Virus record (IMG/VR): IMGVR_UViG_3300038548_000358
Location: 1 to 53,356 of that record
Source: a virus
Taxonomy: Duplodnaviria > Caudoviricetes
Length of the DNA stretch: 53,356 nt
Strand: one strand, 5' to 3'
In this document: piece after piece, positions 46,937 to 47,953 of the stretch
Layout of the letters: each line of letters starts with the position of its first letter
How positions within the stretch are numbered: the stretch's first letter is position 1
The notes under the pieces: model-generated
What the model was told of the DNA's origin: nothing
Seen by the model: the letters and a program-made list of their open reading frames with translations, nothing else
Databases searched by the model: none
Made by a program: the position numbers and the translations under genes

Positions 46937-47531
46937 TTTGATTTGATTGATTTGATTTTAAAACCAAAAAGTAAAGTAGTATGTCGCCTTGGCGTTAAAT
47001 CATAGTTACTCAAGCATGGAAACTACTTGCCTTCTCACCTCATCGTGTCACCCTCTTTCGAGAGCAGTGAAAAATACATAATTCGCTTTACTTTTGGTTC
47101 TGTCAAGTTCGCCTGTACTTGTTAGGAGAGAATGATTAACTTTTATTCCCTAGAAAATTATCGAGGGCTTAGTCTCGTTAAGCAAATAATTAGTTTGGAG
47201 GTTGTGTAGCCTACCGCCGGTGCTTGCTTTATTGTTTCAGAAGGCGAACCCTCACAGAATATAAAAGACCTAATCTGGCTTGTAGTTTTTGATGTCCGAG
47301 AGGAGCCTATCTCGGTAAAGTTTTAAAAAAGTTCTTTGCCCCTAATTTCAGTTAAGGGGATGAGGAGCTGGCTATTCAGGAGATCAACCCTTCCAGACGC
47401 AACGAACACTCATCTCTACAATAAACACAACTGCTGATACAGTCTGACAAGTTAAGTTATATTTTTTTCAAAGCGCCTTTTACATTGCACTACTTTGTCG
47501 TTTATCTTCAAGCAAAGAACTTTTATTCTAG

Positions 47532-47601
47532 GTAAGTGTGCTACCATTACACCAACAGGAGATTCGACCCCCTGCAACAGAATCCAACTGTTACCTCTTA
47601 C
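47532..47601 (-). ncRNA. Circularly permuted tRNA-like element
   Basis: Order is anticodon-stem 3' strand, V loop, T arm, loop-closed acceptor stem, D arm, anticodon-stem 5' strand, with canonical lengths. Confidence 0.65.
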
Positions 47602-47706
47602 TGCTTTTTTTTCTTTTTAAAAAACTAGGGCTCGGTTCTACACCCTAGCGTGCGCTTTCAGGAGTCTTTTAGCTTATCTCCCTAGCTATTTGTGGAACCG
47701 ATTTTG

Positions 47707-47828
47707 TGGAGGAGGATGGAGTCGAACCACCGAATCTAGTCCCCTGTTGATACCCCTACCAACACCTAGATGGCTAACCATTTTTAACCTGCTGAAAATA
47801 TCAGCGTACCTTTTAAGTACTCTCCCCC
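47707..47828 (-). ncRNA. tRNA-like RNA (122 nt) with G3:U70/A73 alanine identity
   Basis: GGGGGAG/CTCCTCC-A acceptor, GGTGG-TTCGACT-CCATC T arm, non-canonical interior. Confidence 0.7.
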
Positions 47829-47953
47829 GTTTTAAAAATAATTAGTGAGCCCCGCATCTTGTCGCATTTAAGGGCTTGTGGTGCAGATATCGCCTCGCTC
47901 TGGTCCCCAGAGTGTGTGCCTAAGCACGACCCACTAACTGTTTTTCAATCTTA

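Follow-up and report, generated by a model that had tools for sequence, protein, structure and literature searches.

The virus record IMGVR_UViG_3300038548_000358, a genome of 53,356 bp analyzed here over its whole length (the window), carries a gene-free gap at positions 46937-47953, between the gene for a single-stranded DNA-binding protein (SSB) and that for a family A DNA polymerase (polA). The gap is probably an island of stable RNAs, corresponding to a phage tRNA island but without a decoding tRNA, and is composed of exchangeable, stem-closed modules on the gene strand. An earlier note, written from the letters of the DNA, had divided the gap into seven structured RNAs, numbered here 1 to 7 in transcription order, which were said to occupy the place of a tRNA cluster without including a canonical tRNA and to be a candidate for an undescribed system. 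That observation was largely right, and the finding is for the most part real. An array of structured RNAs is upheld on comparative evidence for two of the seven modules, the tRNA-like module 2 and module 5, which belongs to a four-helix RNA family; for the other five we have stems, indel borders, and one compensatory hairpin. The term undescribed is fair for the family at 47327-47521 and too strong for the whole cassette, which resembles known phage stable-RNA islands. Its location in the place of a tRNA cluster is well supported by the tRNA-like elements found in the same slot of most relatives, and by the four-helix family, which elsewhere lies between same-strand tRNA genes.

The four-helix family was discovered in contigs of four marine metagenome runs, in which an island of about 32 nucleotides (nt) at 47412-47445 was several-fold deeper and had many different flanks; these flanks share further blocks, as well as a closing stem with compensatory substitutions. 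Read from the 5' end, family members consist of the closing helix P1, the strand UUGAAG, and helix P2, enclosing a variable hairpin and the P3 hairpin with its loop UAUCAG, followed by the strand GUAGAG, at least one variable hairpin, the P4 hairpin with the loop (UA)ACUGAAAUU, the 3' strand of P1, and a U run. The window copy has P1 to P4 in this order together with UUGAAG, the UAUCAG loop, GUAGAG, and the CUGAAAUU loop, and it aligns over its full length to the family covariance model, R1. In a MAFFT alignment of 40 sequences, 90.8% of the cells pair, and 21 of the 27 pairs show changes on both sides; shuffled controls gave 7.2 ± 1.7 (none of 500 reached 21), and sliding by one to three columns gave 5 to 11. 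An alignment of 55 distinct sequences fitted to R1, which leans toward the structure, showed both-side changes in 17 of 24 pairs, versus a control value of 5.0 ± 1.3. Covariation was found in all four helices, and every one of the 12 P1 pairs has changed on both sides. One P2 pair is G-U in 48 of 49 sequences; because such pairs form only on the gene strand, the fold is specific to that strand. Neither R1 nor a profile hidden Markov model (HMM) found a second copy in the window. We conclude from the comparison that 47327-47521 encodes a member of a phage-restricted, covariation-supported family of four-helix RNAs.

A 20-mer from the island core is present in 51 viral contigs and one genome contig, and two further seeds added 21 and 38 more viral loci. 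R1 gave 71 matches in 70 of 80 sources and matched 24 of the 38 later viral loci, four of them weakly, which brings the family to a total of 89 viral contigs. The RNA is all but missing from cellular genomes, where it is carried by 1 of the 151 in the family of the single metagenome-assembled genome that has it. An 18-mer seed occurs in at least 120 genome stretches; when 80 of these were checked with R1, 79 proved to be chance occurrences and one was true. A host CRISPR repeat or host RNA as the origin of the family core was rejected, the 20-mer being found in one genome contig only. In 51 of 52 loci, the core is not covered by any open reading frame (ORF) of at least 70 amino acids (aa). Neighboring tRNA genes, at a distance of up to 1.5 kb, were found in 15 of the 52 loci, always on the same strand and often abutting, and the RNA often occupies the interval between two of them, as between Glu and Ala, between Tyr and Pro, or ahead of Cys; one contig has the unit of a tRNA-like element and a four-helix RNA twice in tandem. 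A T arm was found within 40 nt upstream in 7 of 38 distinct full-length members and within 130 nt downstream in 7, so most members are free-standing. No conserved protein neighbor of the family was found.

Cultured carriers include the Cellulophaga phages phi4:1 and phi17:2, in which the RNA comes after gp167 and a 52-aa “hypothetical protein” is annotated over it, and the crAss-like Cellulophaga phage phi14:2, which has a larger variant in its g002-g003 gap (about 1284-1600 of NC_021806). A 26-nt stretch of phi14:2, later recognized as the family core, was the sole blastn match of the whole window gap in 50,697 phage records. Since cultured Cellulophaga phages carry it, the class is open to study at once. 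Short “hypothetical protein” ORFs that overlap the family RNA had been annotated in phi4:1 (2441-2599 of locus L239) and in phi14:2 (1321-1619 of locus L240), those of phi14:2 having later been removed, and in both phages the RNA is downstream of a gene for an OmpA-domain membrane protein. A marine phage contig with the four-helix RNA in a long tRNA array (L180) also contains a transfer-messenger RNA (tmRNA; 5476-5873, 56.6 bits), the structured RNA GOLLD (7898-8381, 184.7 bits), and a candidate ribozyme of the hepatitis delta virus type (5871-5942, 37.2 bits, below threshold). No Rfam model matched the window copy of the family at E values up to 10 or four other copies at E values up to 1. 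No description of the family was found in the literature, and two core sequence strings were not present in the papers searched; the available part of the text of Weinberg et al. 2017 (PMC5737381) contains neither “Flavobacter” nor “Bacteroidetes” and describes no matching motif. The four-helix RNA class appears to be undescribed.

Module 2 had been called tRNA-like in the earlier note, and its acceptor stem, T arm, folding score, and slot in relatives all agree with this. It shares with canonical tRNAs a 7-bp acceptor followed by a discriminator base and a 5-bp T stem with a 7-nt T loop, which is the only exact match to the T-loop consensus in the window. Four hairpins stand where the D and anticodon arms would be, and CCA is not encoded. 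A canonical tRNA was ruled out by the length of 122 nt, a hairpin with a 5-nt loop, two extra hairpins, and the lack of both an ARAGORN call and an Rfam match at gathering score. The Rfam model for tmRNA (RF00023) aligned to 47704-47828 with 23.6 bits (E = 2.8e-7), over model positions 1-30 and 330-374 only, and module 2 has the tRNA-like domain with G3:U70 that characterizes tmRNA. A tmRNA was nevertheless ruled out: the 271 model positions for the tag reading frame and pseudoknots are replaced by 38 nt, and the score is below the gathering score of 47 bits. We conclude that 47707-47828 encodes a tRNA-like RNA, in which the acceptor/T-arm half is retained with alanine-type identity marks and the decoding half is lost.

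The SSB-polA slot was surveyed in 160 loci encoding SSB relatives (51 to 65% identity) and in the phages P2559Y and BF503P2. This gave 68 distinct gap sequences, that of the window included, with SSB and a related polymerase adjacent; most are 75 to 550 nt long. T arms, 71 in total, are present in 60 of the 68, and upstream of 63 of the 71 lies an acceptor strand that pairs perfectly over 7 bp, versus a mean of 6.8 and a maximum of 13 for decoys with a shuffled 3' strand. Just 14 acceptor/T-arm elements were found in 556 kb of flanking sequence. The slot elements span 47 to 151 nt, with the acceptor/T-arm half kept and the body hypervariable. ARAGORN called an ordinary tRNA in 14 of the gaps, gave only odd calls in 23 (two- or four-base “anticodons,” one of them stop-reading), and found nothing in the remainder. 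The usual arrangement in relatives is a hairpin directly after the SSB stop codon and then a tRNA-like element ahead of polA. These comparisons show a slot that, as read from the gap sequences, is ancestrally tRNA or tRNA-like in this phage lineage. Because the acceptor/T-arm half alone is kept, the element would seem to serve in RNA processing or host-enzyme capture and not in decoding.

The 3' part of module 2 aligns to a tRNA of Croceibacter phage P2559Y with a score of 32, versus at most 29 in shuffles, and the two elements have in common the first four acceptor pairs, the discriminator, and the trailer. The P2559Y tRNA is unannotated in NC_023614; it reaches 52 bits with the tRNA model of Rfam and lies inside a 719-nt gap between SSB and polymerase. 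Local alignment of the window gap with those of P2559Y and of the closest SSB/polA relative (L001, 65%) recovered the T arm and 3' end only. The L001 gap (2163-2713, 550 nt) contains three tRNA-like elements, one of them called as a stop-reading tRNA (anticodon tta, 40.6 bits on the Rfam tRNA model), and a further module between the tRNA-like elements that is closed by a stem of about 20 bp. Gut- and rumen-type relatives (L006, L010, L013, L027, L033, and about 30 more loci) have in the slot a highly conserved tRNA-like gene of 80 to 82 nt, such as 4563-4644 in L010, with good acceptor, D, and T arms and a non-standard anticodon loop; ARAGORN reads a four-base anticodon, ccat, with the variants ttg, tat, att, and cat. 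By eye, the gaps of L007, L008, L094, L124, and L130 have a similar ORF of about 40 to 45 aa after the tRNA-like element, which is absent from the window.

Contigs of the four marine metagenome runs were aligned to the region, and their natural indels and replacements fall on the borders that had been drawn between the modules. At the joint 47841>47941, module 1 is replaced by 22 nt that form a hairpin, and other loose ends lie at 47941. Modules 3 and 4 are missing at the joint 47523>47701, seen in three contigs from two runs (two in X2 and one in X3). In one relative (run X7), about 102 unrelated letters replace module 7 at ~46932-47092, with module 6 kept at ~90% identity, and a further natural border lies at ~47316. 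The joints 47338>47414 and 47441>47498 flank both variable inserts of the four-helix RNA. The simplest relative, represented by one contig, is without module 1 and without the 177-nt stretch of modules 3 and 4; it consists of the SSB end, the 22-nt hairpin, a shorter tRNA-like element with 19 nt of the body missing, and the four-helix RNA directly after. The modular picture holds, since relatives gain, lose, or swap modules at the proposed borders, and the alignments show what we read as gain, loss, and replacement of whole modules among close relatives.

For modules 1, 3, 4, 6, and 7, blastn and nhmmer found no significant homologues in the collected loci; exact 20-mer seeds from modules 4, 6, and 7 each occur in no viral contig. 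Module 1 adjoins the SSB stop codon, where close relatives have simple hairpins, and is probably an SSB 3'-end hairpin or terminator module. Module 4 has one T-arm-like and one D-arm-like hairpin and no recognizable tRNA; the suggestion that it is a permuted tRNA found no support, as no tRNA model matched it even at E ≤ 10 and its folding z score is unremarkable (-1.5). Module 6 has ~90 to 95% identity in metagenome relatives. On one contig, positions 47249 and 47244 of its UUCG-loop hairpin change together, and 47243 and 47242 change as well; all of the changes (G-C to A-U, G-C to G-U, and G-U to G-C) preserve pairing. Module 7, in which the GAAA tetraloop described for the minus strand is indeed present, ends 25 nt ahead of the polA start and is possibly a polA leader.

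The predicted folding energy of the whole gap is -275.1 kcal/mol on the minus strand versus -243.8 kcal/mol on the plus strand, in accordance with the minus-strand structure proposed earlier. The z scores of modules 1 to 7, with 200 shuffles for each, were -1.6, -4.0, -0.55, -1.5, -2.0, -1.9, and -3.1. Modules 2 (0 of 200 shuffles as good) and 7 (1 of 200) thus stand out from shuffles and the other five do not; all of these scores are flattered, since the module borders had been drawn by their stems. An unbiased scan of 480 minus-strand windows of 120 nt gave a mean z of -0.09 inside the gap (22 windows) versus -0.35 outside it (452 windows). The only extreme window in the gap, 47717-47836, has the lowest z of all 480 (-4.5). 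Long-range closing stems are present as claimed; the perfect 13-bp arms 47327-47339 and 47512-47524 form the longest perfect inverted repeat outside 28.9-29.3 kb. The closing stems of modules 1, 3, and 5 run into U runs (U6 after the stem of module 3), and for this strand of the gap a consensus scan for terminators reports no hit because these stems are long-range or have large loops. The motif TTTTTAAAA has seven minus-strand copies in the genome; three of these fall inside the gap, one at the end of each of modules 1, 3, and 5. Counting both strands there are 19 copies, versus 3.8 expected, and three of the four minus-strand copies outside the gap (12868, 36980, and 48569) lie in short intergenic spacers; the motif may be a genome-wide mark of transcript ends or processing sites.

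The window represents a tailed phage; as a virus record it is complete and has direct terminal repeats. Its identified structural genes are those for the small and large terminase subunits, portal, capsid, and tape-measure proteins, and its replication module comprises a DUF2800 nuclease, the Enc34-type SSB, the family A polymerase, a VapE-type primase-helicase, an SNF2 helicase, and methylases. The polymerase is 63% identical to that of P2559Y and 53% identical to those of Bacteroides fragilis phages, which makes a host among the Flavobacteriia likely; the highest SSB identity is 65% among viral contigs and 64% among those from metagenomes. The minus strand carries every long ORF of the window. 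As first noted, 46937-47953 is the largest gene-free gap of the genome; on a greedy ORF map the runner-up has 452 nt and lies at the genome end. No ORF longer than 51 aa was found in the gap under table 11 or table 4 (TGA = tryptophan), and hidden ORFs that read TGA as tryptophan were therefore rejected. The G+C content of the gap, 0.35 to 0.46, is similar to that of the rest of the genome. Over the window, ARAGORN found no tRNA genes and Rfam 15 gave no matches at gathering score. The promoter-type box reported upstream of SSB is TACATTTG, which we take to be a Bacteroidota -7 box; because no other such minus-strand box occurs from 48531 to 45018, it is likely the promoter for SSB and the RNA cassette.

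Table 1. Coordinates of the genes, predicted RNA modules, and structural elements of the SSB-polA region, with the corresponding gap of phage P2559Y
Feature	Positions	Strand	Details
TACATTTG box	48524..48531	-	~34 nt upstream of SSB start; pattern scan
SSB gene (Enc34-type, PF10991)	47954..48490	-	E 6e-67
Module 1, three hairpins, long-range closing stem, then U run	47842..47937	-	z -1.6; 14/200 shuffles as good
TTTTTAAAA copy at end of module 1	47830-47838	-	
Module 2, tRNA-like RNA	47707..47828	-	z -4.0; acceptor and T arm; ends match tmRNA model; slot in relatives
Module 2 acceptor, 7 bp, G3:U70	47828-47822 / 47714-47708	-	GGGGGAG/CUCCUCC
Module 2 discriminator A (A73)	47707	-	
Module 2 T stem-loop	47731-47715	-	GGUGG-UUCGACU-CCAUC; 5-bp stem, 7-nt loop
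Modules 3 (47619-47701) and 4 (47532-47601), one 177-nt insertion unit	47524..47700	-	z -0.55 and -1.5
Module 5, four-helix RNA family member	47327..47521	-	Covariance model R1 136.6 bits, E 1e-23; profile HMM E 1.2e-30
Module 5 P1	47521-47513 / 47338-47330	-	
Module 5 P2	47506-47500 / 47426-47420	-	
Module 5 P3 hairpin	47443-47430	-	Invariant loop UAUCAG
Module 5 P4 hairpin	47359-47339	-	Loop UAACUGAAAUU
Module 5 variable inserts	47499-47446 and 47411-47360	-	
Module 5 U run	47330-47325	-	
Module 6 and linker hairpin (47314-47295)	47098..47324	-	z -1.9; 7/200 shuffles
Module 6 UUCG-loop hairpin	47253-47240	-	Pairing kept by compensatory change
Module 7, 138-nt domain, 14-bp closing stem	46962..47099	-	z -3.1; 1/200 shuffles; arms 46967-46976 / 47086-47095
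Module 7 GAAA-capped hairpin	47064-47051	-	
Family A DNA polymerase gene (polA, PF00476)	44969..46936	-	Profile match; 63% identity to P2559Y polymerase
P2559Y gap without annotated feature	Locus 2782-3500; tRNA 2857-2943		Alanine-type acceptor marks

If the gap is a stable-RNA island, it would be co-transcribed with SSB from the box at 48524-48531, as suggested by the fact that no second such box occurs on the minus strand within the gap. Host RNase P and RNase Z would cut at the tRNA-like element and so part the SSB message, the small RNAs, and the polA message, and the closing stems and U runs would protect or end the pieces. The four-helix RNA would act in trans, with its invariant loops UAUCAG and CUGAAAUU contacting a conserved host component, most likely of the tRNA or translation machinery. 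Alanyl-tRNA synthetase reads the acceptor stem alone, and for this reason the tRNA-like RNA may be charged with alanine. A processed polycistronic transcript, as the earlier note had supposed, is plausible from the arrangement of these elements.

Several observations weigh against the stable-RNA island. No RNA run containing the stretch was found, and co-transcription, processing, and stability are predicted properties. In the scan with 120-nt windows, the gap as a whole is no more structured thermodynamically than coding sequence. For five of the seven modules, no homologue turned up in the 1.47 Mb of loci and the collections that were scanned, and these modules may be spacers, leaders, or debris. 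A terminator-like appearance is seen in module 3 and at the ends of modules 1 and 5; if efficient, such terminators would interrupt the proposed single transcript. About three quarters of the four-helix family are not beside tRNAs. The alanine marks are common to module 2 and P2559Y only and not to other relatives, so charging is not a conserved requirement of the slot.

A cis-acting role as terminators, stabilizers, or polA leader is a serious rival explanation for modules 1, 3, 4, 6, and 7. Applied to the whole gap, it would leave no free RNA at all: leaky terminators, stabilizer hairpins, and a processing site would step transcription down from an abundant SSB message to a scarce polymerase message preceded by its leader. 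Such a step-down is consistent with the usual order in relatives (hairpin, tRNA-like element, polA), with the stem and U run that end modules 1, 3, and 5, with the position and good folding of module 7 next to the polA start, and with the 11 of 45 family contexts that begin within 7 nt past an upstream co-oriented stop codon. A plain terminator, however, has no need of invariant loops and four covarying helices, and none is listed by the consensus scan of this strand; moreover, the four-helix RNA occurs in unrelated contexts without a common neighbor gene, including sites between tRNA genes, where termination would be harmful. We therefore regard purely cis-acting control of the entire gap as unlikely.

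The remaining explanations are weaker than the cis-acting one. Apart from the two conserved RNAs, the gap might be mostly evolutionary debris, left by a decayed tRNA cluster or by inserted DNA; the five modules without homologues, the dispensability of modules 3 and 4 in relatives, the likeness of module 4 to scrambled tRNA arms, and the unremarkable mean folding z would all suit this. Yet 1 kb has been retained in a densely packed 53-kb genome, with clean module borders, a module 6 that keeps 90 to 95% identity in several runs and has one compensatory hairpin change, and a module 7 at z -3.1, and debris seems rather improbable. The tRNA-like RNA and its neighbors could instead, as the earlier note suggested, be anti-defense decoys that soak up host factors attacking tRNAs or 3' ends, or protein sponges. 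Retention of the acceptor/T-arm half with decay of the anticodon arms in relatives would favor enzymes that read the top half of tRNA, and the P4 loop of the family resembles, to judge by its letters, an anticodon-type loop. The anticodon loop, the usual target of tRNA nucleases, is nevertheless precisely the part that is not conserved; there was no defense or counter-defense gene among the 30 proteins scanned and no tie of the slot to any known system, and we think a decoy role quite improbable. Finally, the location between SSB and polymerase, the patchy, mobile-looking spread of the 47327-47521 family, and three perfect inverted repeats of at least 9 nt in the gap (as many occur in just 10 of 210 equal-sized segments) could indicate a DNA-level element such as a replication origin, a recombination site, or a miniature inverted-repeat transposable element. 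The structure is strand-specific through its G-U pairs, and neither iterons nor tandem or multi-copy repeats were found in the gap, which, together with the ordinary G+C content, does not fit an origin. A transposase site would keep a fixed sequence, but the P1 arms covary with both-side changes in all 12 pairs and no target-site duplication appeared in the alignments, which rules out a miniature inverted-repeat transposable element. There is likewise no sign of an attachment site, since the 3' end of module 2 does not copy the end of any bacterial tRNA or tmRNA; a 22-mer from it was found in two archaeal contigs only among genome contigs and in no viral contig. A DNA-level explanation is thus very improbable.

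The tRNA gene cluster of phage T4 contains two extra stable RNAs, species 1 and 2, or RNAs C and D. As in T4, where small stem-closed RNAs and tRNA genes follow one another head-to-tail on a single strand and the RNAs are presumably excised by tRNA-processing enzymes, the four-helix family accompanies tRNA genes in the 15 loci mentioned above. The window differs from T4 in having no canonical tRNA and in the location of its island inside the replication module; its RNAs are unrelated in sequence and are known here from sequence alone. A run of same-strand canonical tRNA genes is found in other carriers of the family and not in the window. Longer transcripts may also contain tRNA-like processing signals, as in the tRNA punctuation of mitochondria and in mascRNA at the end of MALAT1. 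There too two functional RNAs are separated by a tRNA-shaped element whose anticodon arm is poorly kept, an arrangement that fits the SSB-polA slot; the known cases, however, are eukaryotic or organellar, and here the RNase P and RNase Z sites are predicted only. With tmRNA and the alanine minihelix, module 2 shares G3:U70, a discriminator A, a T arm, and the lack of an anticodon, and it differs from tmRNA in lacking the tag reading frame and pseudoknots.

GOLLD (RF02032) and ROOL are phage- or prophage-encoded structured RNAs described in PMC12286853 and PMC5737381 as “often near tRNA islands.” The four-helix family has a similar genomic habit, and in L180 it shares an array with GOLLD and a tmRNA. 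Its members are ~160 to 260 nt long, versus ~600 to 800 nt for GOLLD and ROOL, and identity with either was ruled out by the Rfam search described above, which detected GOLLD itself elsewhere in L180. Phage phi14:2, from the same host group, offers another parallel: according to Drobysheva et al. (10.1101/2020.03.07.982082), its long intergenic regions give abundant and persistent early RNAs, above most genes. The RNAs highlighted there come from the g004-g005 and g005-g006 junctions, not from the g002-g003 gap that holds the family member. The whole locus appears to be a variant of the known phage stable-RNA or tRNA-island type that contains an apparently undescribed RNA class.

With the four-helix family, the short list of structured phage RNAs gains a covariation-supported, phage-restricted class known so far from 89 viral contigs. 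The slot survey reveals a tRNA-shaped element at the SSB-polymerase junction throughout a broad phage lineage, with marine, gut, and rumen contigs among its members, and the metagenome relatives suggest that modular RNA islands evolve by gain, loss, and swap of whole modules. Two annotations may be corrected: the “hypothetical protein” ORFs of phi4:1 overlie the RNA, and the tRNA of P2559Y is unannotated. A bolder reading, which we hold only tentatively, is that Flavobacteriia phages share an exchangeable toolkit of small stem-closed RNAs, which would move as cassettes between siphovirus-like, myovirus, and crAss-like phages and dock by tRNA or tRNA-like genes. The four-helix RNA would then be a compact, tertiary-folded effector, possibly with UCAG-CUGA loop kissing, that binds or mimics a host tRNA or translation component with an alanine-chargeable partner. 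If this is true, it would represent a new class of phage RNA effector and not a by-product of tRNA islands.

Outside the SSB-polA region, a cluster of long perfect inverted repeats, with arms of up to 29, 20, and 14 nt, lies at 28961-29255. These are the densest inverted repeats of the genome; they sit in 300-nt gene-free stretches by the small terminase gene and may mark a regulatory or packaging region.

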